This document shows, piece after piece, positions 3,958 through 27,684 of a stretch of DNA of 27,684 nt. The number at the start of each line of letters is the position of its first letter. Position 1 is the stretch's first letter. Below the pieces are notes generated by a model. That model saw nothing but the letters and a program-made list of their open reading frames with translations. It ran no database searches and was not told the DNA's origin. The translations under genes were made by a program, and so were the position numbers. The stretch comes from a virus (lineage: Duplodnaviria; Heunggongvirae; Uroviricota; Caudoviricetes), in IMG/VR virus record IMGVR_UViG_2562617057_000002, one strand, 5' to 3'.

Positions 3958-4599
3958 ATGAATGCACGAAAAGCGGTACTGGCAGACAATCCGGAATTGA
4001 TCCTGCGTGTGCTACAACTGAGATTTGACGAGTCACTGTCGTACCCGCGCATTTCTGCGCAGACCGGTATCAGCAAAACCGCCATTTTTTCTCTGGTGAG
4101 GCGATTTCACCAGGTATTCACTGACTGGCCTCTTTCCGGGGAATATTCCTGCGTGCAACTGGCCCGGGCTTTGTTCCCGGGGCGATACCCTTCAGCCCCG
4201 ACAGTAACTCAGACTGTGAAAACAGAGAAAAACCGCCGGAACCGATTTTCACCGGAGTTTAAATGGAGACTTGTTCAGCAAACTCTTTTACCCGGTGCCT
4301 GTGTCGCACAAATAGCTCGTGAGAACGGAATCAACGATAACCTGCTCTTTAACTGGCGGCATCTCTGGCGTAACGGCGGCCTGCAGCCGACCGGCGAACA
4401 TGAAACATCGCTACTTCCCGTGACGTTAACTCCGGAGCCGGATAATAAAATCCCGGCACCAGTGCAGATACCTGAACAGATGCCCGACAGTCTGTGCTGT
4501 GAGCTGGTTCTGCCGGCCGGAACTCTCAGGCTGAAAGGTGAACTGACACCGGCGTTATTACAGACACTTATCCGCGAAATGAAAGGGAGCAGCCACTGA
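3958..4599 (+). CDS. tnpA: IS66-family accessory protein TnpA-like (213 aa, with N-terminal extension)
   Basis: C-terminal half (RFSPEFKWRLVQQTL...IARENGINDNLLFNWR) matches the IS66 Orf1 HTH motif; first gene of the element; stop overlaps the tnpB start (ATGA). Confidence 0.75.
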   Translation: MNARKAVLADNPELILRVLQLRFDESLSYPRISAQTGISKTAIFSLVRRFHQVFTDWPLSGEYSCVQLARALFPGRYPSAPTVTQTVKTEKNRRNRFSPEFKWRLVQQTLLPGACVAQIARENGINDNLLFNWRHLWRNGGLQPTGEHETSLLPVTLTPEPDNKIPAPVQIPEQMPDSLCCELVLPAGTLRLKGELTPALLQTLIREMKGSSH

Positions 4600-4946
4600 T
4601 GATATCTCTCCCTGCCGGTTCGCGTATCTGGCTGGTTGCCGGTATCACCGACATGCGAAATGGTTTTAACGGCCTGGCATCAAAAGTTCAGAACGTCCTG
4701 AAGGATGACCCGTTCTCCGGGCATCTGTTCATCTTCCGCGGACGCCGGGGTGACCAGATAAAAGTGTTGTGGGCTGACAGTGACGGACTGTGCCTCTTCA
4801 CCAAACGCCTGGAGCGGGGCCGCTTCGTCTGGCCGGTTACCCGTGACGGCAAGGTGCACCTTACTCCGGCTCAGTTATCTATGCTTCTTGAAGGTATCAA
4901 CTGGAAGCACCCGAAACGAACGGAACGCGCTGGCATCCGCATATAA
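4599..4946 (+). CDS. tnpB: IS66-family TnpB (Orf2)
   Basis: 115 aa, MISLPAGSRIWLVAGITDMRNGFNGLA...KVLWADSDGLCLFTKRLERGRF is the characteristic IS66 Orf2 sequence. Confidence 0.85.
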   Translation: MISLPAGSRIWLVAGITDMRNGFNGLASKVQNVLKDDPFSGHLFIFRGRRGDQIKVLWADSDGLCLFTKRLERGRFVWPVTRDGKVHLTPAQLSMLLEGINWKHPKRTERAGIRI

Positions 4947-4965
4947 CCCGTTGTAAAGTGAGGAT

Positions 4966-6537
4966 ATGGACACCTCACTTGCTCATGAGAATGCCCGCCT
5001 GCGGGCACTGTTGCAGACGCAACAGGACACCATCCGCCAGATGGCGAAATACAACCGCCTGCTCTCACAGCGGGTGGCGGCTTATGCTTCCGAAATCAAC
5101 CGGCTGAAGGCGCTGGTTGCGAAACTGCAGCGCATGCAGTTCGGTAAAAGCTCAGAAAAACTTCGCGCTAAAACCGAACGACAGATACAGGAAGCACAGG
5201 AGCGAATCAGCGCACTTCAGGAAGAAATGGCGGAAACGCTGGGTGAGCAATATGACCCGGTACTGCCATCCGCCCTGCGCCAGTCTTCAGCCCGTAAACC
5301 GTTACCGACCTCACTTCCCCGTGAAACCCGGGTCATCCGGCCGGAAGAGGAATGCTGTCCGGCCTGTGGTGGTGACCTCAGTCCTCTGGGGTGTGATGTG
5401 TCAGAGCAACTGGAGCTTATCAGCAGCGCTTTTAAGGTTATCGAAACACAACGTCCGAAACTGGCCTGTTGCCGGTGCGACCATATCGTGCAGGCACCAG
5501 TACCTTCAAAACCCATTGCACGCAGTTATGCCGGAGCGGGGCTTCTGGCTCATATCGTCACCGGGAAGTATGCAGACCATCTGCCGTTATACCGCCAGTC
5601 AGAAATATACCGTCGTCAGGGCGTGGAACTGAGCCGCGCCACGCTGGGGCGCTGGACCGGTGCCGTTGCTGAACTGCTGGAGCCGCTGTATGACGTGCTG
5701 CGCCAGTATGTACTGATGCCCGGTAAAGTCCATGCGGATGATATCCCCGTTCCGGTCCAGGAGCCGGGCAGTGGTAAAACAAGAACTGCCCGGCTGTGGG
5801 TCTATGTCCGTGATGACCGTAACGCCGGTTCACAGATGCCCCCGGCGGTCTGGTTCGCGTACAGCCCGGACCGGAAAGGTATCCATCCACAAAATCACCT
5901 GGCCGGTTACAGCGGTGTGCTTCAGGCCGATGCTTACGGTGGTTACCGGGTGTTATACGAATCCGGCAGAATAACGGAAGCCGCGTGTATGGCTCATGCC
6001 CGGAGAAAAATCCACGATGTGCATGCAAGAGTGCCCACCGACATCACCACGGAAGCCCTGCAGCGTATCGGTGAACTGTATGCCATCGAGGCAGAGGTCC
6101 GGGGCTGTTCAGCAGAACAGCGTCTGGCGGCAAGAAAAGCCAGAGCCGCGCCACTGATGCAGTCACTGTATGACTGGATACAGCAACAGATGAAAACACT
6201 GTCGCGTCACTCGGATACGGCAAAAGCGTTCGCATACCTGCTGAAACAGTGGGATGCACTGAACGTGTACTGCAGTAATGGCTGGGTGGAAATCGACAAC
6301 AACATTGCAGAGAACGCCTTACGGGGAGTGGCCGTAGGCCGGAAAAACTGGCTCTTCGCGGGTTCTGACAGCGGTGGTGAACATGCTGCGGTGTTGTACT
6401 CGCTGATCGGCACATGCCGTCTGAACAATGTGGAGCCAGAAAAGTGGCTGCGTTACGTCATTGAACATATCCAGGACTGGCCGGCAAACCGGGTACGCGA
6501 TCTGTTGCCCTGGAAAGTTGATCTGAGCTCTCAGTAA
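4966..6537 (+). CDS. tnpC: IS66-family transposase TnpC (DDE)
   Basis: 523 aa; N-terminal coiled-coil/leucine-zipper region, Cys cluster (CPACGG...CCRCDH), C-terminal DDE core; typical IS66 Orf3. Confidence 0.85.
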
Positions 6538-6833
6538 ATATCAATACGGTTCTGGCGAGCCGCTTACACAGAATCTGCGTGCGATTCTTTGCTGATTAGA
6601 ATTGCATCAGGAGGTAATGGCGTTACGATAAACTCCCCATTTTCGAGCGTTATCACTTCGTAGTGACCTGGTAAAGAAAGCACAACAATCAATTCTTTAA
6701 CGTTCATAACAAAAAGCCTGTGAACTTTTAACACTTCCCCTTAAGGGGTCCATCCCTCTTCTCCCTGCGCGCTACTTAAGTGTTTTTGATTCTATTCCTG
6801 CGCATTCTGAAAGTTCAAACGAGTTGAAAATCG

Positions 6834-6857
6834 CAACAAAAAACCCGCCGAAGCGGG
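6834..6857 (-). terminator. Rho-independent terminator after the 272-aa membrane-protein gene
   Basis: Minus strand: CCCGCTTCGGCGGG hairpin followed by TTTTTTGTT (plus-strand caacaaaaaacccgccgaagcggg). Confidence 0.5.
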
Positions 6858-6879
6858 TCTGGTTATTGATGAATTAACT

Positions 6880-7698
6880 TCACGGTTTGGGCTGGAAATT
6901 CTTATTCAGCGCTCTGCACTGCTCTTTGTCTTCTTCTTCATGGGCTTTAAATACAGAATAAGTATCAGGGTCAAAAAACGAGATAGATTCCACTTCCCTC
7001 TTGGCTACAAGTATCCGAAAGTCTTCAAGGCTAAGGCCGCCAAGACCTTCCGCTACAATTCCTTCTGACTGATAATGTCGGCGGTAGTTTGTTGTGATGT
7101 TTGTAGTTAACGTACCCTTATCCCGATACCCACTCAACAGCGGAAGAAGTTCAATATGGGTAAAATCGCCGTTTTCAAAACTTGGGCAGATAACAATTCC
7201 AACGTAAAATTTTCTGGATGAGAGTGTTATAATGACGGGAAATTGCCTGACTGCTGCTTCCATCAGGAAGCTCTCTTCTGGACTTGTGGAAACAATTCTT
7301 GCGATAGCATCCAACCTGCGATCCCCTTTCTCTGTTCTTTTTTTGCGCCGCCAACCGCAAAATGCAGCAAGAGCAACAGATGTCATTCCCCAGACTGCAG
7401 ATTTAAGATCCTTTATCGAATTTCCTCCATCAAAAGAGATAGGAAAAACTCTTTTCAGGGCATCAGGACCAAGATGAAAAAAATGCAGAATACCGTTAAT
7501 CAACCAGCGGTATACCCCAAGGAAACCAAGGATCGTACAAACAACCCACGCAACACAGACAAAAACAGCTCCCCAGGTTGCAACAAAAAAATAAGCGTCC
7601 CATCCCACAGAACGCTTATACCTATATCTTGTTTCCAAACAAAGAGTAACATAAACATAACCACTAATCAGTATGACAGCGATCAATAGCGTATTCAT
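6880..7698 (-). CDS. Hypothetical integral membrane protein (272 aa): ~4 N-terminal TM helices plus a ~150-aa C-terminal soluble domain
   Basis: Long ORF in an AT-rich segment; hydrophobic stretches at residues ~3-21, ~35-75, ~100-117 followed by RRKKRTEK (positive-inside); start adjoins the upstream small gene's stop; no family recognised. Confidence 0.6.
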   Translation of the reverse strand: MNTLLIAVILISGYVYVTLCLETRYRYKRSVGWDAYFFVATWGAVFVCVAWVVCTILGFLGVYRWLINGILHFFHLGPDALKRVFPISFDGGNSIKDLKSAVWGMTSVALAAFCGWRRKKRTEKGDRRLDAIARIVSTSPEESFLMEAAVRQFPVIITLSSRKFYVGIVICPSFENGDFTHIELLPLLSGYRDKGTLTTNITTNYRRHYQSEGIVAEGLGGLSLEDFRILVAKREVESISFFDPDTYSVFKAHEEEDKEQCRALNKNFQPKP

Positions 7699-18636: not shown

Positions 18637-18957
18637 ATGCAGGTTGAATACACACTTACCGCCAGAACAAGCCTTGAGCAAATTGCCGACCATCTCCGGA
18701 GTAACGACATTGACCCACGCCCTGTAATAGCAGAAATTCTTGAGCGATTTGAAACAAGAGTTACTGCATTCCCGTCCGGATGTCAGTTATGCCCGGAGTT
18801 GCTCAAGCTTGGCGTGGCTAAATACAGAGAGTGCAACACACCAGAAGGCTACAGAGTGCTGTACTCTGTCGAGGAGGATATTATCACTGCACACGTGATT
18901 CTTTCCCAACGTCAGGATATTAAACAGTTACTGTTCAGACGATTGATCAGAGTTTAG
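18637..18957 (+). CDS. ParE/RelE-superfamily type II toxin
   Basis: 106 aa; C-terminal GYRVLYSVEEDIITAHVILSQRQD matches the RelE/ParE fold signature; immediately downstream of the Phd-like gene. Confidence 0.7.
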   Translation: MQVEYTLTARTSLEQIADHLRSNDIDPRPVIAEILERFETRVTAFPSGCQLCPELLKLGVAKYRECNTPEGYRVLYSVEEDIITAHVILSQRQDIKQLLFRRLIRV

Positions 18958-19276: not shown

Positions 19277-19831
19277 ATGGCTACTATCCCTGCCCTTTCT
19301 CACCCTGACGTAACCATCGAAAATGGTCGCGCTGTCACTACGTCTGTTGCTATTGCGGAGTTCTTCGGCAAACGCCACGAACGTGTGCTGGATAAAATTC
19401 GCAATTTAGACTGCTCATCAAATTTTAACGAACACAATTTTGTGTCGGTCACCTACACCGACACCAAAGGCGAAAAACGCCCAATGTACCAAATCACCAA
19501 AAACGGCTTCGTTTTCCTGGTGATGGGCTTCACTGGCAAAAAAGCCGCCGCATTCAAAGAAGCCTACATTGCTGAGTTCGACCGCATGGAGGCCGAACTG
19601 CGCCAGAATAATACCCTGCCCGCTGACAAAATTATCCCGGGAGATGGCCGTACTCTCGTTGTTCACTTCGACGAACACGGCAACATCAGATTCACCGAAA
19701 CCGTTCCTGACGGTGCAATGGTCTGTACCCTGGATACTTTCCAGTTTTATCTGGAAAAACAGGGGTGGGCTCTTGTAAACCGGAGCGCAATTAAAAATAT
19801 GACTGTGGAACAATTACTTTCTTTAAAATAA
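19277..19831 (+). CDS. rha: Rha-family phage regulatory protein
   Basis: 184 aa; AAGGAGG Shine-Dalgarno; N-terminal motif TTSVAIAEFFGKRHERVLDKIRNL typical of Rha N-domains. Confidence 0.7.
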   Translation: MATIPALSHPDVTIENGRAVTTSVAIAEFFGKRHERVLDKIRNLDCSSNFNEHNFVSVTYTDTKGEKRPMYQITKNGFVFLVMGFTGKKAAAFKEAYIAEFDRMEAELRQNNTLPADKIIPGDGRTLVVHFDEHGNIRFTETVPDGAMVCTLDTFQFYLEKQGWALVNRSAIKNMTVEQLLSLK

Positions 19832-20129: not shown

Positions 20130-20203
20130 TTAACTGAATATTCGAAACTGAATTTATGCCAGCAATGGCAGGGATTCACTCAACCTTAAAAAAGGAAACA
20201 GCA

Positions 20204-20500
20204 ATGAGTATTATTGAATGTGAAATTGAACTTGATGTTATTAACGATTCTCTCGCCGAATTTAAATGTGGGAATACATTACATAGTTTCATTCAGATTT
20301 CCCAAAAAGAAAACGTCACGGTAATTATTGATGGCTGTTACGTTCTGAGAACATTTGATTGTTGTGTATGTGCCATTAAAGAAATTGCATTACTCACAGC
20401 TCGCATTGAAGAGGCTGACAAGAAATACGGTATCAGTTATCAACGACTGAAAGAACTCTCTCATATCGCATCATCAGTTCGTTTCTTTTATGCAATCTGA
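20204..20500 (+). CDS. Hypothetical protein (98 aa from MSIIECEI; the track's longer frame starts at 20156)
   Basis: AAGGA Shine-Dalgarno before the ATG at 20204; none before 20156. Confidence 0.4.
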   Translation: MSIIECEIELDVINDSLAEFKCGNTLHSFIQISQKENVTVIIDGCYVLRTFDCCVCAIKEIALLTARIEEADKKYGISYQRLKELSHIASSVRFFYAI

Positions 20501-20603
20501 ATATGAGTTGAGGTTAAAAAACAATGAGCACCGATAAACAAGTTTACCCACTGTATTACGAAGCAAAAAATGACAAAGTAAGAAAACGCCTCGGTATTAA
20601 AGG

Positions 20604-22029
20604 TAATGCCAGTCAGTTAAGCAACTGACTGGCTCTTTTTCGGGGCTGTGGGGTATTTCCAGGGCCTCTCCTTTACCACTCTCGGGAAGGCCCTTTCCCT
20701 TCTCGTCGGTAATTTCACAAGTTGTCCCATACTTGCAAGATCGCGCATCAGCTCCGGTATACGTCCCGGTGAAGCGCCCTGCAATGTCATCAGCATTCTC
20801 ATCACCATTCCGCATGATTCTGAGAAACTCAGTTGATTCGGCCAGTAACCTTTCAGATGTTCCGCCATTTTAATCATCTGATATCTCACCAGATTATAAG
20901 CCAGTAAGACACCCCACAGCTCTTGCTCCACAAGCTCCGGCTTTTTACTTCTCAGCGTCAGCCTGCTCAGTTGCATCGTCTGTTTTATCTCCCTGTATCC
21001 CAGTTCGATTTCCCAGCGATGACTGTACAGATCCGCCATTTCTCCTCCGGGGAAGCGCATGGCGTCCGTCATCGACGTCAGCAGATGGCAGACTTTTCCT
21101 TTGCGCGTCACGGTCAGCAGGCGGGCTGTCACTTCATTTCCCAGTCCCGGCCACTTTTTTCGTGCCTGCGGGCTGGTTTTCAGCTTCACCAGATGATCGC
21201 CTTTACCCAGTTTTCTGAGCTCTTCATATTGCGCTCCCTTTCTGAGAGGTATCATCCAGTGGCGGTGTTCTCCCGCCAGGCTCCAGGCATTTAACAGTCC
21301 CAGTGAGTAATAACCTTTATCCATTAACGTCAGAGTGTTATCGCCGGTTTGTTCTATAAGTTGCTCAGCAAGCTCATTTTCGCTGTTCTTCATCGTGCCG
21401 AAGGCTGCAGCCGTCAGCAGATGGCTGGTCAGTTCCATCTGGCAGACCATTTTGACCTGCGGGTAGAGCGCCGGGTTCCCGGCATGTGTCTGGCGGGGGA
21501 AGGCTGCATCGTTCTCTGGTGTATCCGGTGTGCGCCAGAACACACCATCGATGGCCAGCAGGGTCAGGCCGCACCAGTGCGGATGCGGCGTGGCGTTATG
21601 CCAGAGCTGCGCTGTTTTCGTGAACACGCGGCGGACAGCCTCACTTCCCAGGCGCTGGCGGGCCTGAATAACGGCACTGGGGGCAACGAAGGGGCGATTG
21701 CCCGGCAGCATGATGTCCAGGCGATTCACAATCTGGTGAAGAGGTTCTTTACGCTCAAGCGCCATGCCAACAATACACCAGACCATCATTTCGAGGGGAA
21801 GACGGCGCTTGCGTAGCGTTACAGTACCTGATTCGGCAAGGCAACGAGAGATGAGTTCGGGGTCGAGGTAATCCCCCAGAGAAGTCAGTGGGTTACGCAG
21901 AGAATCGTAACGGGATACCAGATCAAGAGCCTGTCCAATGTGCATAAAAAAATCCGGAAACAAGTGAGCGTTTCCGGATTCTTACACAGCCACTGGATCG
22001 GTCAACTGATCCTTAACTGATCGGCATTA
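20604..22029 (-). mobile_element. IS4 (1426 bp) with terminal inverted repeats and a 12-14 bp target-site duplication
   Basis: Ends TAATGCCAGTCAGTTAAG / reverse complement TAATGCCGATCAGTTAAG; direct repeat CTCGGTATTAAAGG at 20590-20603 and 22030-22043. Confidence 0.85.
20617..21945 (-). CDS. insG: IS4 transposase (DDE; InsG-like, 442 aa from MHIGQALDL)
   Basis: Sequence matches E. coli IS4 transposase as recalled; the track frame extends 6 codons further upstream (to 21963). Confidence 0.9.
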
Positions 22030-23881
22030 CTCGGTATTAAAGGCGGTTTTTACTGGGCTGAAGCGAAAAAATTATCCATTGCCATCTCCCGTGGTGCTGT
22101 TGCGATTGACGATGCAGGCTACGATGAAGATGACTTTAAAAAACCTGTTCACGTCAATTTGCCCGTTGTTGATGACCTCCCGCCAGAAGGCGTGTTTGAT
22201 ACGGAATTCTGCAACCGTTACGAAAAAGGCGGGGAAGATGGCATCACAATGGTATTTATCGCATCTTCTCCCTCTGTTCAGGACAAACCAGCCAGCACTG
22301 ACAATACCAACGTCAACGGCGAAGACATGACAGAAATTGAGGAGAACATGCTCCTGCCAGTTTCCGGTCAGGAACTGCCCATTCGCTGGCTTGCTCAACA
22401 CGGCAGCGAAAAACCGGTAACGCACGTTTCACGCGACGGACTCCAGGCATTACACATTGCTCGGGCTGAAGAACTACCGGCTGTTACTGCCCTGGCTGTT
22501 TCCCACAAAACCAGCCTGCTCGACCCGCTGGAAATTCGCGATCTCCACAAACTGGTTCGTGACACTGACAAAGTTTTCCCTAATCCTGGTAATTCAAGCC
22601 TGGGACTGATAACTGCTTTTTTCGAAGCATACCTGAACGCTGACTACACCGATCGAGGACTGCTGACAAAAGAGTGGATGAAGGGTAATCGTGTTTCACA
22701 CATCACTCGCACGGCTTCCGGTGCTAATGCTGGCGGCGGAAACCTCACCGATCGCGGCGAAGGTTTCGTACACGATCTGACGTCACTGGCGCGCGACGTA
22801 GCCACTGGCGTACTGGCCCGTTCAATGGATCTGGACATCTATAACCTTCATCCGGCACACGCTAAACGCATTGAGGAAATTATCGCTGAAAATAAACCGC
22901 CCTTTTCTGTTTTCCGCGACAAATTCATCACCATGCCTGGCGGGCTGGATTATTCCCGCGCCATCGTGGTTGCGTCCGTAAAAGAAGCACCAATTGGGAT
23001 CGAGGTCATCCCCGCGCACGTCACTGAATATCTGAACAAGGTACTGACTGAAACCGATCATGCCAACCCTGATCCGGAAATCGTGGATATTGCCTGCGGT
23101 CGCTCCTCTGCCCCGATGCCGCAGCGTGTAACAGAAGAAGGAAAACAGGATGATGAAGAAAAACCGCAACCATCTTGCGCAATGGCAGATGAACAGGCAA
23201 CGGCTGAAACAGTGGAACCGGATGCAACTGAACATCATCAGGACACGCAGCCGCTGGATGCTCAGTCACAGGTAAATGCTGTTGATGCGAAATATCAGGA
23301 ACTGCGGGCAGAACTCCATGAAGCCCGGAAAAACATTCCGCCCAAAAATCCTGTCGATGCAGACAAATTACTGGCTGCCTCTCGCGGAGAATTTGTTGAA
23401 GGGATTAGCGACCCGAATGATTCGAAATGGATTCCCGGTCATCATATCTCCTCAAATGAAGTCAAAAAAACGGAAAATGAAGTGCGACAGACCGAAGATA
23501 AACAGCACCAGAACAGCGAACCGGAGGAGGGAACACCCTGCAATCAGACTGGCGAGGATAACTGCCCTGACTGTGGCGCGGTGATGGGAGACGCAACTTA
23601 TCAGGAAACTTTTGACGAAAAAAAACCAGATGAAGCACAGGAAGAAGAGCCGAAGAAAACGGAAAAAGCTGATGATTTGTTACCGGAGAACGCTGGCAGC
23701 GATCAGCATAATGATAGCAATAATGAAACTGGCGAAGATGAACTCAACTGGAAAAGACAGGTGTTGATTGCGGCGGTTTACGGTTTATGTGCGAATCCTG
23801 CGTGCATAGCCTATGCGCCTGCAATCCCTGACATCGCAATGATGATTGCCAACAAGCTTGAAAATTTTGGAGTGACCAGTG

Positions 23882-24178
23882 ATGAGCGCTTACCCGATTT
23901 TTGATCGTATTGAAGAAATGGCATGGGCTCGTCACTACCAGCAGATCGTTCGTGAAGAAAAAGAAACGGAACTGGCGGACGACCTGGAAAAAGGTCTGCC
24001 TCAGCACCTGTTTGAATCGCTCTGCATCGACCATTTGCAACGCCACGGTGCCAATAAACAGGCAATCAGCCACGCATTTGATGATGATGTTGAGTTTCAG
24101 GAGCGCATGGCAGAACACATCCGGTACATGGCTGAAACCATTGCCCACCACCAGGTTGATATTGATTTGGAGGACTAA
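23882..24178 (+). CDS. RacC-like small protein (98 aa)
   Basis: WARHYQ..VREE ... [40 protein letters not shown] resembles Rac RacC as recalled; GGAGTGA Shine-Dalgarno; overlaps the 3' end of the RecE-like gene. Confidence 0.5.
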
Positions 24179-24183
24179 AATCT

Positions 24184-25281
24184 ATGGCGCTTTTTCAACG
24201 AGCAATAAACACACAGGCCTATCTAAAAGCAGGAATTATGGGGTTTGCTGGCGACGGCAAAACCTACACAGCAAGCGAACTGGCTATTGGTCTGGTAATG
24301 CTTATGCGGCAACGGGGAATTGAAGCTGGTAACCGCCCGGTAATGTTTCTGGACACAGAAACAGGCTCTGACTGGGTTAAACCCCGCTTTGATGCGGAAA
24401 ATATCGAATTATTTACGGCAAAAACCCGCTCGTTTGTTGATCTGCTTGAAGCCATTAATGAAGCGGAAAGCAGCGGTTCCGTAATGATCATCGACTCCAT
24501 CAGTCACTTCTGGACCGGATTATGCGACGAGTATGCCAGACGCCGAAACCGTAAACGAGGACTGGAATTTTCAGACTGGGCGTGGCTCAAACAGGAGTGG
24601 CGACGCTTTACCGATCGATTTGTTAACAGTCAGGCGCACATTATTATGTGCGGGCGTGCAGGATATGAGTATGACTTTTTCGAAGGTGATGATGGCAAAC
24701 GCCAGTTGGCAAAAACCGGTATAAAAATGAAAGCAGAAACAGAAACCGGTTATGAACCCTCCATCCTGATCCAGATGGAGAAGCAAATGAACATAGAAAC
24801 CGGTCAGGTGTGGCGCACCGCCAGAATACTAAAAGATCGCTCCACCCGTATTGATGGACAGGTATTTTCAAACCCAACATTTAAAAACTTTCTTCCTCAT
24901 ATCGAGTTTCTTAACCTGGGAGGTGAACACCTCGGCATCGATACCTCACGGGATAACAGTGAATTATTTGCCAACGACGGTACACCGACATGGCTAAAAG
25001 AAAAGCGTGCAAAAGAAATCGCACTTGATGAAATTATCGAGTTGCTCAACAAACACCATGGGGGCACCAGTAACGACGCCAAACGCGCAAAAGCTGATTT
25101 GCTGGAAAAAACATTCACCTCCCGCTCATGGGAAAGAATCAAAGGTATGGACTGGCCGACAATCAAAGCTGGTCGTAATGCACTATGGATTGAACTGGAA
25201 GGCGTTGAATATGCATTCCCGGATCCACAAACACAAAACGAAACGCAACAAGCAGGATACGATGAGAATATTCCGGTGTAA
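24184..25281 (+). CDS. P-loop NTPase, RecA-like/AAA_24 (Sak4-like) candidate recombination ATPase
   Basis: 365 aa; Walker A GFAGDGKT, Walker B-like VMIIDSISHFW; sits where lambdoid phages carry their recombination module. Confidence 0.55.
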   Translation: MALFQRAINTQAYLKAGIMGFAGDGKTYTASELAIGLVMLMRQRGIEAGNRPVMFLDTETGSDWVKPRFDAENIELFTAKTRSFVDLLEAINEAESSGSVMIIDSISHFWTGLCDEYARRRNRKRGLEFSDWAWLKQEWRRFTDRFVNSQAHIIMCGRAGYEYDFFEGDDGKRQLAKTGIKMKAETETGYEPSILIQMEKQMNIETGQVWRTARILKDRSTRIDGQVFSNPTFKNFLPHIEFLNLGGEHLGIDTSRDNSELFANDGTPTWLKEKRAKEIALDEIIELLNKHHGGTSNDAKRAKADLLEKTFTSRSWERIKGMDWPTIKAGRNALWIELEGVEYAFPDPQTQNETQQAGYDENIPV

Positions 25282-25331
25282 AACCAAGTGCATTTTGGAC
25301 ACGGTTTTTGAAAATATTAATGGAGGTGTTC

Positions 25332-25520
25332 ATGTATAAAATTACAGCCACTATTGAAAAGGAAGGTGGTTCTCCTGCCAGCTGGACAAGATACTCAAAG
25401 ACAAAACTAACGAAATCAGAATGCGAAAAAATGCTCTCAGGGGAAAAAGAAGCAGGCGCTTCCAGAGAGCAGAAAGTAAAACTGATAAATTTTAATTGCG
25501 AGAAACTTCAGTCCTCGTGA
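25332..25520 (+). CDS. Hypothetical small protein (62 aa from MYKITATIEKEGG)
   Basis: TGGAGGTG Shine-Dalgarno before the ATG at 25332. Confidence 0.45.
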   Translation: MYKITATIEKEGGSPASWTRYSKTKLTKSECEKMLSGEKEAGASREQKVKLINFNCEKLQSS

Positions 25521-25626
25521 ATTTCATTATATCCAGATTAGAACTTCATAGCTGATTATTAAAAATCAACCACACCCGCCAGTATTCTGTATATTTACTG
25601 GCGGTCATATCGTGAGAGGTATGGCA

Positions 25627-25908
25627 ATGAATCTTGTGACACTCAAAACGTGGGGAAAACTCAGATATCCGGATAACCCACCATCAATATCAACGCTGAG
25701 ACGATGGGCAAGGAATGGAAACATTTATCCTGCACCTGAACTACACGGGAGGAGTTACAGGGTGGTTCCGGAGGCTTTCTATATCAACCCAAATAAGGTT
25801 GATACCGATATAACACACCATCAGCCTAATGGGCGACAAGGGAGAGACAGTCCGTTAATGGAGAAGTTAAAACATGCAGCGGAAAAAATACGATCCCAAT
25901 TTGCCTAG
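25627..25908 (+). CDS. xis: Excisionase (Xis-like DNA-binding protein)
   Basis: Motif TLRRWARNGNIYPAPELHGRSYRV resembles lambda-type Xis; overlaps the integrase start; start codon uncertain (25612/25621/25627). Confidence 0.65.
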   Translation: MNLVTLKTWGKLRYPDNPPSISTLRRWARNGNIYPAPELHGRSYRVVPEAFYINPNKVDTDITHHQPNGRQGRDSPLMEKLKHAAEKIRSQFA

Positions 25909-26950
25909 AAACTTAACATATCGAAGGAGAGACAAAGCATATTACTGGCGCAACCCTCTGACGAAAGAAGAATTTACACTAGGTAAAATTTCAAGAAGAG
26001 ATGCAGTAACGCAGGCAATTGAAGCAAATCATTATATATACAAAAACTACTCTCCCGCTGCCTTAATTGAAAAACTTAAAGGGTTCGACTCATTTACTAT
26101 GGCAGACTGGATTGAACGTTACAAAACGATTCTTATAAGGAGAAAAGTGTCCAGAAATACTTATAAAATTCGGGCAAATCAACTGGAGACAATAAAAGAA
26201 AAATTGGGAGAGATTTTACTGACAGAAATAACCACTCGCCATATTGCCGAGTTTCTTGATTTGTGGATTGAAGGAGGGAAAAACACAATGGCAGGATCAA
26301 TGCGTTCTGTGTTGTCTGATATGTTTCGCGAGGCCATTGTTGAAGGACGTATATCTCAAAATCCAGTCACGCCAACAAGAGCACCGAAAATAGTAGTTAC
26401 AAGAGAACGACTGAAACTAAAGACATACAACTGCATCAGGGAGGCAGCAGATCAACTTCCGGCATGGTTCCCATTAGCTATGGATTTAGCCCTTGTAACA
26501 GGACAACGTCGCGAAGACATAACGAATATGCGGTTCAGTGATATTTATGATGATCGTCTCCACGTCAGGCAAATTAAGACAGGAATGATGATTGCTATCC
26601 CCCTGTCACTCAGCCTTCCTGTCGCTGGTCTACGGCTTGGTACAGTAGTTGAACGATGCCGCCTGGTAAGCCGGGGAGATTATCTAATCAGTGCCGGGAT
26701 TAGAAAAAACAGCCCTGACGGCAGCATTCACCCGGATGGCCTGACAAAAAAATTTGTCGCAGCCAGAAAATTCACAGGTATCCAGTTCAGTGAAAACCCA
26801 CCAACTTTTCACGAGATCAGAAGCCTGGCTGGACGATTGTACAAAGAAACATGTGGAGAAGAATTTGCTCAGCGTCTACTTGGCCACACATCGGAGAAGA
26901 CAACAAAAATGTATCTTGATGAGAGAGAAAAAACGTACTTACTGCTCTGA
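25874..26950 (+). CDS. int: Tyrosine site-specific integrase (lambda Int family)
   Basis: 358 aa; N-terminal arm-binding-like region, core and catalytic-domain motifs (R...HEIRS...[13 protein letters not shown]) with a C-terminal Tyr. Confidence 0.85.
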
Positions 26951-27342: not shown

Positions 27343-27684
27343 TTAACAGAGTTTTTCAGCTCGTTCTATAAACGGTGCCAGACTCATTTTTTCGCCGGGA
27401 TTGTTAGGATCATCAATCTGAATCACCGAAATGGGTTGGGCATTGGTCTTCCCACTGGCAACTTCCTTTTGTGCGATATCGTTTAAAGGATACTGCACGA
27501 GGGTACTCGGATTAATAACATACAAAGCATTACCCGGTCGGCAAGTCAGCATCACCTCTTCGCGATTAAACGCCCATTTGTCTTTACCCACTTCAAAACG
27601 ACTGACGGTAATCACCTGCGGTGCAGCCAGCGCCGCTGCAGAACTGGTGAGTAACAGAAACGCCAGAATACTTTTTTTCATCAT
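27343..27684 (-). CDS. Secreted/periplasmic protein with Sec signal peptide (YebY/DUF2511-like by recollection); probable host flanking gene
   Basis: 113 aa; signal peptide [25 protein letters not shown] is at the last bases of the window; moderate GC unlike the adjacent AT-rich prophage arm. Confidence 0.5.

Follow-up and report, generated by a model that had tools for sequence, protein, structure and literature searches.

Which recombination system occupies the early-left arm of a Rac-like prophage that has kept a recE-like gene and yet lacks recT? The virus record IMGVR_UViG_2562617057_000002 (Caudoviricetes; 27,684 nucleotides, the whole of which is referred to here as the window) is an E. 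coli/Shigella prophage of lambdoid, Rac-like type that adjoins yebY. Behind its RecE-N-like gene lie two tightly packed open reading frames (ORFs) on the + strand, one of 98 amino acids (aa; 23882-24178) and one of 365 aa (24184-25281). A sequence-only reading had taken these for a RacC-like gene and a Sak4-like P-loop ATPase, that is, for a mosaic of the Rac order racC-recE-recT. The analysis described here leads to a different identity for the first ORF. With a probability of roughly 0.6, we read positions 23882-25281 as a two-gene Rec module, composed of Gam and a Sak4-like ATP-dependent annealase/recombinase, for which the host gives resection and single-stranded DNA-binding protein (SSB).

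Gam and an ATPase gene in the place of bet-exo-ralR

By its sequence, the 98-aa gene is lambda gam. Its product, read from the ATG, matches PF06064 over the full length (E 8.1e-56, positions 1-97 of 98) and phrog_259 (E 5.5e-54), and an identical protein is found in RefSeq as a Gam-family host-nuclease inhibitor (WP_001277359.1). Membership in this family suggests that the protein inhibits RecBCD. Alignment, which the sequence-only reading had itself named as the check on RacC, does not bear that identity out: BLASTP of the ORF (23882-24175) against K-12 RacC (b1351) gave no alignment at E <= 100. The 114-aa ORF farther upstream (20156-20497) is not RacC either (BLASTP against K-12 RacC, E 2.5). 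Since the middle gene is Gam and not RacC, the module is lambda-Red-like (gam, then annealase) rather than of Rac type; of the earlier proposal, the mosaic nature of the module and the RecA-fold ATPase of AAA_24/Sak4 type in the annealase/exonuclease slot stand, and the Rac framework is replaced.

The exchange is a precise one. In a sibling prophage at the yebY site of E. coli R1, which has the order RecE-N, gam, bet, exo, ralR, DUF1187, xis, int, identical flanks enclose gam-bet-exo-ralR. DNA homology between this sibling and the window ends at 24180, two bases beyond the gam stop codon, and restarts at 25309, at the start of the DUF1187 gene; therefore, the 1.1-kb ATPase gene replaces bet-exo-ralR exactly. 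Compared with lambda Red (gam-bet-exo), the operon position and the order, gam then recombinase, are the same, but a single RecA-fold ATPase gene stands in place of the Rad52-fold annealase Bet, the exonuclease Exo and ralR, and no nuclease is left. Compared with Rac, in which racC lies upstream of recE-recT, the prophage belongs to the same lineage, with an upstream gene 80% identical to the N-terminal part of RecE and then rcbA, xis and int, whereas it is without a RacC homologue, the RecE nuclease domain and RecT and has Gam, which Rac lacks. Both Rac and the gam-bet-exo sibling carry ralR ahead of rcbA; its loss accompanied that of bet-exo.

Among the loci examined, the block of RecE-N, Gam, ATPase and RcbA is present at three attachment sites, namely yebY, yfaA-gyrA and the genuine Rac site ttcA, the last with intR/xisR; at ttcA, K-12 has recE-recT where another strain has this block. 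The ATPase gene is rare in E. coli, being found in 10 of 5426 complete genomes (23 copies overall). Carriers have one to four copies per genome (median 2); in those looked at more closely (CFSAN029787, O121 201805972 and VL40), the copies occupy different prophages, in which the block is always the same.

The pairing of Gam with the ATPase is conserved. In the window, a Shine-Dalgarno sequence read directly as GGAGGA (24169-24174, + strand) sits within the last gam codons, 9 nt ahead of the ATG of the ATPase gene, which argues that the two genes are translationally coupled, and the gap between the end of gam and the start of the ATPase gene is 0-6 nt in 47 of 52 enterobacterial loci. The pair persists in the ultraviolet-induced Cronobacter phage phiES15, the order of which is Kil-Gam-ATPase-DUF7740-methylase-xis-int. 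The ATPases of E. coli and phiES15 share 85% identity and the adjacent Gam proteins 39% (window 23882-24178 versus 6711-7001 in the phiES15 locus, L003), so that the ATPase evolves much more slowly than its Gam partner. DNA similarity to phiES15 is limited to the ATPase gene (24184-25175, 77%). This phage has O/P replication genes and RusA, and no second annealase.

That the ORFs are real genes is borne out by the breadth of the ATPase family: a single search brought up 2050 homologues, and no fewer than 627 clusters (50% identity) have E <= 1e-30; homologues from Enterobacteriaceae to Pseudomonas and Burkholderiales are 60-87% identical. In the bet-exo-ralR slot, in phiES15 and across 39 non-redundant family loci, the ATPase is the only annealase candidate of its recombination module. 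Single phmmer queries, the sensitivity of which is limited, found no homologue of Bet, RecT, P22 Erf or lambda Exo in up to 10 kb of flank on each side of these 39 loci, and the 25 downstream and 18 upstream Pfam families represented in ORFs within ~1.8 kb of the gene include no annealase or lambda-type exonuclease family.

The position of the gene also admits another reading. In lambdoid phages, the region between the Rec genes and xis houses accessory genes such as ralR and rcbA, and the 365-aa protein might be one more accessory P-loop ATPase of this variable gam-xis region (a moron, defence or anti-defence function) with no relation to recombination. Its neighbours vary widely by host (DUF7740, SutA-RBD/HTH, methylases, a SNF2-like helicase), and the rarity in E. 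coli and the absence of a function in PHROGs point the same way. This explanation is nevertheless quite unlikely. Identity of 60-87% from Enterobacteriaceae to Burkholderiales is in our judgement closer to what core DNA-metabolism genes show than to fast-evolving defence genes, tight coupling joins the gene to gam or, in other hosts, to ssb, no other annealase was found in the carrier phages, and the protein has the fold and motifs of a RecA-family recombinase.

Fold and motifs of the 365-aa ATPase

The 365-aa product of the intact gene at 24184-25281 on the + strand (WP_001173292.1, phrog_1366) is a RecA-fold AAA_24 ATPase, to which we refer as long-form Sak4-like. A hidden Markov model search matches its residues 14-187 to Pfam AAA_24 (E 7.5e-14; 52.5 bits, cut-off 27) and its residues 2-304 to phrog_1366 (E 1e-79). 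The match to the Sak4-like phrog_124 is weak (E 1e-8), and no NCBIfam model matches the protein. The AAA_24-type P-loop that had been recognized from the letters is thereby confirmed, with Walker A, GFAGDGKT, at residues 20-27 (24241-24264, + strand), of which G20, G25 and K26 do not vary across 76 diverse family members. Among family members 36-59% identical to the query, conservation of at least 90-95% is reached by D57 and E59 in D57-T58-E59 (24352-24360), by D104 and S105 in VMIIDS (residues 100-105, 24481-24498), which comprises Walker B plus a serine (hhhhDS), and by H152, G157, R158 and E185. The first of these motifs is of the RecA/Rad51 'IDxE' type with a putative catalytic glutamate; by comparison with known sequences, E59 would correspond to E96 of RecA and to the glutamate of the Rad51 IDTE motif.

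Two further elements may contact DNA or a neighbouring subunit. The most conserved stretch of the protein (mean column conservation 0.67) covers residues 168-193 (24685-24762), a hairpin or loop that ends GKRQLAKTGIKMKAETETGYEPS, contains the invariant E191 and is predicted to be disordered, with a predicted local distance difference test (pLDDT) score below 50 at residues 175-189. This stretch may be an L2-like loop that binds single-stranded DNA (ssDNA). At the end of a core strand, the near-invariant K217-D218-R219 (24832-24840) may supply a Lys/Arg finger acting in trans, as suggested by phage 52A Sak4, in which a lysine of the neighbouring protomer lies at the nucleotide (PMC11846896).

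Structure prediction, also proposed by the sequence-only reading, gives a RecA-type alpha/beta core at residues 1-230 in an AlphaFold (AF2) model with a pLDDT of 83.9, in which the hairpin at residues 175-189 is of low confidence. The structural neighbours in BFVD carry the name RecA-like DNA recombinase, and recombinases rank above helicases in the fold search. This ranking bears on a role in replication, in which the protein would be a RecA-fold hexameric helicase of DnaB, RepA or T7 gp4 type, or a helicase loader. Some short phage relatives of ~30% identity are annotated as 'replicative DNA helicase'. We consider such a role highly improbable, since the ATPase has neither a DnaB N-terminal domain nor a primase domain, the gene lies in the early-left recombination slot, the prophage has its own DnaB-type helicase (12929-14359, with DnaB and DnaB_C domains, in the opposite operon beside an O-like gene), and phiES15 has O and P. 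No DnaB or DnaB_C match to the ATPase was obtained from Pfam even at E <= 10.

RecA, UvsX, archaeal RadB and the eukaryotic Rad51 paralogs share with the ATPase the core fold, Walker A and B, the 'IDxE' glutamate and hhhhDS. The ATPase differs from them in that it has neither the RecA C-terminal domain nor the Rad51 N-terminal DNA-binding domain, is 11-18% identical to them, and carries a C-terminal domain with no detectable counterpart. The non-catalytic Rad51 paralogs XRCC3, RAD51D and XRCC2 are among its best structural matches, as would be expected of a Rad51-paralog-like mediator that assists host RecA, or a host pathway such as RecFOR, in loading onto phage ssDNA coated with SSB after Gam has removed RecBCD-dependent loading, for a purpose comparable to that of lambda Orf/NinB. 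Canonical Sak4 alone is incapable of strand exchange (PMC5928155), an SSB-like acidic tail and an extra helical domain suggest protein-protein contacts, and a module without exonuclease or SSB needs the host in any case. On the other hand, full conservation of the ATPase motifs, with the catalytic Glu among them, sets the protein apart from many degenerate paralogs, and the gene fills the bet slot rather than the orf/ninB slot. NinB is present in 6 of the 39 non-redundant loci, a co-occurrence that speaks against redundancy with a mediator, and HK620 Sak4 neither stimulated nor inhibited strand exchange by RecA (PMC5928155). A mediator is therefore unlikely in our estimation.

Comparison with Sak4 and the proposed mechanism

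Sak4 is an ATP-dependent annealase (PMC5928155), and Sak4 of phage 52A forms Rad51-like filaments (PMC11846896). The Sak4 proteins (HkaL of HK620 and those of phi31, PA73 and S. aureus 52A, PDB 8rc5) have in common with the ATPase a RecA/Rad51-fold P-loop, Pfam AAA_24, Walker A and B, and a place in the early/recombination module of temperate phages, where they replace a Rad52-type annealase and sometimes have ssb directly after them. RecA-fold annealases in lambdoid Rec modules are thus already known from HK620. Because HK620 Sak4 scores lower than the ATPase on both AAA_24 (30 versus 52.5 bits) and phrog_124 (E 1.9e-5 versus 1e-8), the superfamily membership of the ATPase is as good as that of a proven Sak4. 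In a survey published in 2025 and covering 325 lambdoid phages, the types of strand-annealing protein (SAP) include a Rad51/RecA type, and a Rec module is mentioned for phiES15 (PMC12315714); to judge by elimination from Table 1 of that survey, the phage is probably counted there as 'anti-RecBCD + SAP'. Literature searches found nothing that characterises the long-form clade.

The differences from Sak4 concern family, partners and size. The ATPase belongs to phrog_1366 and Sak4 to phrog_2872 and phrog_124; the former pairs with Gam, not with Abc2, and is usually without a phage SSB. HK620 Sak4 needs its cognate SSB, and about 80% of sak4 genes adjoin ssb (PMC5928155). Sak4 has 226 aa in HK620, in which it is a 25.6-kDa protein (PMC5928155), 219 aa in the chain of phage 52A, and 245 aa in phi31 (PMC2896510). 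At 365 aa, the ATPase is ~135 aa longer than these 219-245-aa proteins, and the additional C-terminal residues that had been noticed at the outset are indeed present.

In the mechanism that we favour, the module would be transcribed in the early-left operon, between the nuclease-less RecE-N-like gene and rcbA-xis-int. Gam would block host RecBCD, so that linear or rolling-circle phage DNA survives, and the ATPase, a RecA/Rad51-fold protein of Sak4/AAA_24 lineage, would take the place of Red-beta or RecT. With ATP it may bind ssDNA, probably as a Rad51-like filament and via the loop of residues 168-193, and anneal the bound strand to its complement at replication forks or resected ends. Neither a phage exonuclease nor an SSB is encoded in the module, so that the host would have to provide both resection and SSB functions.

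Several observations weigh against assigning this function to the long-form protein. PHROGs lists phrog_1366 as of unknown function. By definition, Sak4 is a mini-Rad51 that consists of the core alone and has fewer than 290 aa (PMC2896510), and the ATPase, with a C-terminal helical domain and an acidic tail, is neither core-only nor of that size; of the Sak4-like identity first proposed, the RecA-type core and the AAA_24/phrog_124 relationship hold, and the core-only form does not. Its alignment to HK620 Sak4 by hhalign is marginal (probability 24%, E 8e-4) and confined to the region from Walker A to Walker B, and a profile of the diverse family (A5) matched PDB sequences at the level of the P-loop only (SRP54 3e-4, RadA 0.045, Sak4 0.68). 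No SSB is encoded in the module, and only 5 of the 39 family loci have an adjacent one. ORF clustering over these loci revealed no conserved partner gene; only out-of-frame shadows of the ATPase gene recur. Moreover, once Gam blocks RecBCD, a module that lacks an exonuclease has no evident supply of ssDNA, and the IS4 element upstream may prevent expression in the window. Because IS4 splits the upstream gene and two further insertion sequence (IS) elements are present, the module in the window is probably no longer normally expressed, being silent or decaying.

The PDB matches of profile A5, led by SRP54, were judged spurious, and PDB sequence searches with the close-homologue profile (A1) and the C-terminal profile (A2) gave no match. 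SSB is the commonest identifiable neighbour of the family: in the 5 of 39 loci concerned, ssb lies directly downstream, often with overlapping stop and start codons as in sak4-ssb, and in Achromobacter prophages it is directly 3′ of the ATPase gene, with its start at the ATPase stop codon.

The C-terminal extension, absent from canonical Sak4, is the feature that most clearly sets the long form apart. Residues 233-340 (24880-25203, + strand) comprise a conserved linker, PHIEFLNLGG, and a four-helix domain; the extra helical domain covers ~110 aa, and core and C-terminal region occur together in all of the best 150 family representatives. No Pfam, PDB-sequence or convincing structural match to this domain was found. 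It is followed by a disordered acidic tail, residues 341-365 (25204-25278, pLDDT about 40), which ends ...YDENIPV, and the tip of which, DENIPV, resembles the SSB C-terminal tip DDDIPF. Within the last 30 residues, a [DE][ILVM]P motif is enriched in the family, with 59 of 188 members carrying it as against 19.3 +/- 4.0 in shuffled tails, and its proline is the penultimate residue in 26 members. The helical domain and the ...DENIPV tail are the likeliest elements for contacts with a partner or for self-regulation.

The motif often stands at the very end of family proteins (EDIPQ, EEIPL, EDVPA). Many other members end in ...AA, ...EAA or ...AAA (L012, L020, L080, L083, L084, L099, L104 and others), which recalls ssrA/ClpX-type C-terminal degrons and may represent an alternative tail type. 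No anticorrelation between the tail motif and an adjacent phage ssb was seen, and the idea that the SSB-like tail stands in for an adjacent phage SSB is unsupported, as two of the five ATPases with an adjacent SSB carry the motif too. In the ten longest of the listed relatives, which were checked (517-1115 aa), no extra Pfam-detectable domain was found, and the C-terminal extensions that were read are of low complexity.

It is tempting to speculate that the long form by itself makes up a complete recombination system in a single polypeptide, in which the core anneals and the C-terminal domain and SSB-like tail plug into the host SSB network; the protein would bind host SSB, or would mimic its tail to recruit RecJ, ExoI, RecQ or RecO. 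We regard this as a rather doubtful proposal. If it were true, one gene would replace annealase, exonuclease and cognate SSB and could serve as a portable recombineering tool, and the unusually high conservation across Gamma- and Betaproteobacteria would be explained.

To return to the proposed two-gene module of Gam and annealase, phage recombination modules are where recombineering tools come from, and they often trigger anti-phage systems or are targeted by them (PMC11846896). The family described here is large and very conserved in prophages from Enterobacteriaceae to Burkholderiales, and databases label its members 'AAA family ATPase' or 'unknown function'. It fills the annealase slot, usually as the sole recombinase candidate, and its extra domain and tail set it apart from the Sak4 proteins that have been characterised. 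If active, it would offer an ATP-dependent recombineering function in one gene, or in Gam plus one gene, for many Proteobacteria, and a natural test of what a second domain contributes to a 'mini-Rad51'. For the window itself the result is more modest, namely a corrected annotation (Gam, not RacC) and the documentation of a clean cassette swap in an IS-riddled prophage.

The RecE-N-like gene and the surrounding prophage

The + strand of the early-left arm carries, in order, a YdaE-like gene, the 114-aa gene, the RecE-family gene, the 98-aa and 365-aa ORFs, DUF1187, xis and int. The corresponding arm of E. coli VL40 is 99.9-100% identical to the window, save for one insertion and a short difference at 26554-26585. 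The insertion is an IS4-family element of 1426 bp on the − strand (20604-22029; Pfam Nterm_IS4 and DDE_Tnp_1; transposase ORF 20617-21963), flanked by a 14-bp target duplication, CTCGGTATTAAAGG, at 20590-20603 and 22030-22043, and not present in the VL40 locus. It breaks the RecE-N-like gene after 27 codons. The true start of this gene is at 20524; its 5′ fragment (20524-20603, + strand), MSTDKQVYPLYYEAKNDKVRKRLGIKG, is collinear with the start of the RecE-family coding sequence at position 11935 of the VL40 locus, and the remainder lies at 22030-23904 (+ strand), with its 3′ end overlapping the gam start by 23 nt.

The upstream gene proved to be RecE-N-like, as had been read. It matches Pfam Exonuc_VIII and NCBIfam PRK09709, the latter over positions 66-596 of 877 only and with a score of 941.8, below the cut-off of 1269. 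The product is 80% identical to K-12 RecE residues 58-585, at which point the alignment stops; its final ~55 aa are unrelated to RecE. In RecE (866 aa), the 5′-3′ exonuclease domain is about the last 260 residues, and the RecE-N-like product has no counterpart of this C-terminal nuclease part. A RecE homologue of 580-665 aa that retains the N-terminal ~585 residues, is without the nuclease domain and overlaps the gam start with its 3′ end is kept upstream of gam in both gam-bet-exo and gam-ATPase prophages (window 20524-23904; L002 5935-7932). As the sibling gam-bet-exo prophages carry the same nuclease-less gene, it is not specific to the ATPase variant.

The first gene past the swapped cassette is the DUF1187 gene (25308-25520, + strand; PF06688, E 8e-36; probable start Met9 at 25332), an rcbA homologue with 90% identity to RcbA of K-12 Rac ('double-strand break reduction protein'). 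It is followed on the + strand by an excisionase gene (25612-25908) and a tyrosine integrase gene (25874-26950), which together span 25612-26950 and are supported by Pfam Exc, Phage_integrase and Arm-DNA-bind_1 and by the RefSeq annotation of the VL40 locus. Beyond xis and int, this end of the prophage adjoins yebY (27343-27684, − strand). A scan for promoters and terminators showed nothing notable inside the module.

Farther upstream, the early-left region contains a Phd/YefM-ParE/RelE type II toxin-antitoxin pair (18637-18957 and upstream), after which comes a Rha regulator gene (19277-19831) that is annotated as a partial pseudogene in the VL40 locus. In addition to IS4, the window has an IS66-family element with three ORFs (HTH_Tnp_1, TnpB_IS66 and DDE_Tnp_IS66) at 3958-6537 and an IS110-family transposase at 11653-12849. 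The prophage is probably defective and riddled with IS elements, and such richness in IS elements is typical of Shigella and enteroinvasive E. coli.

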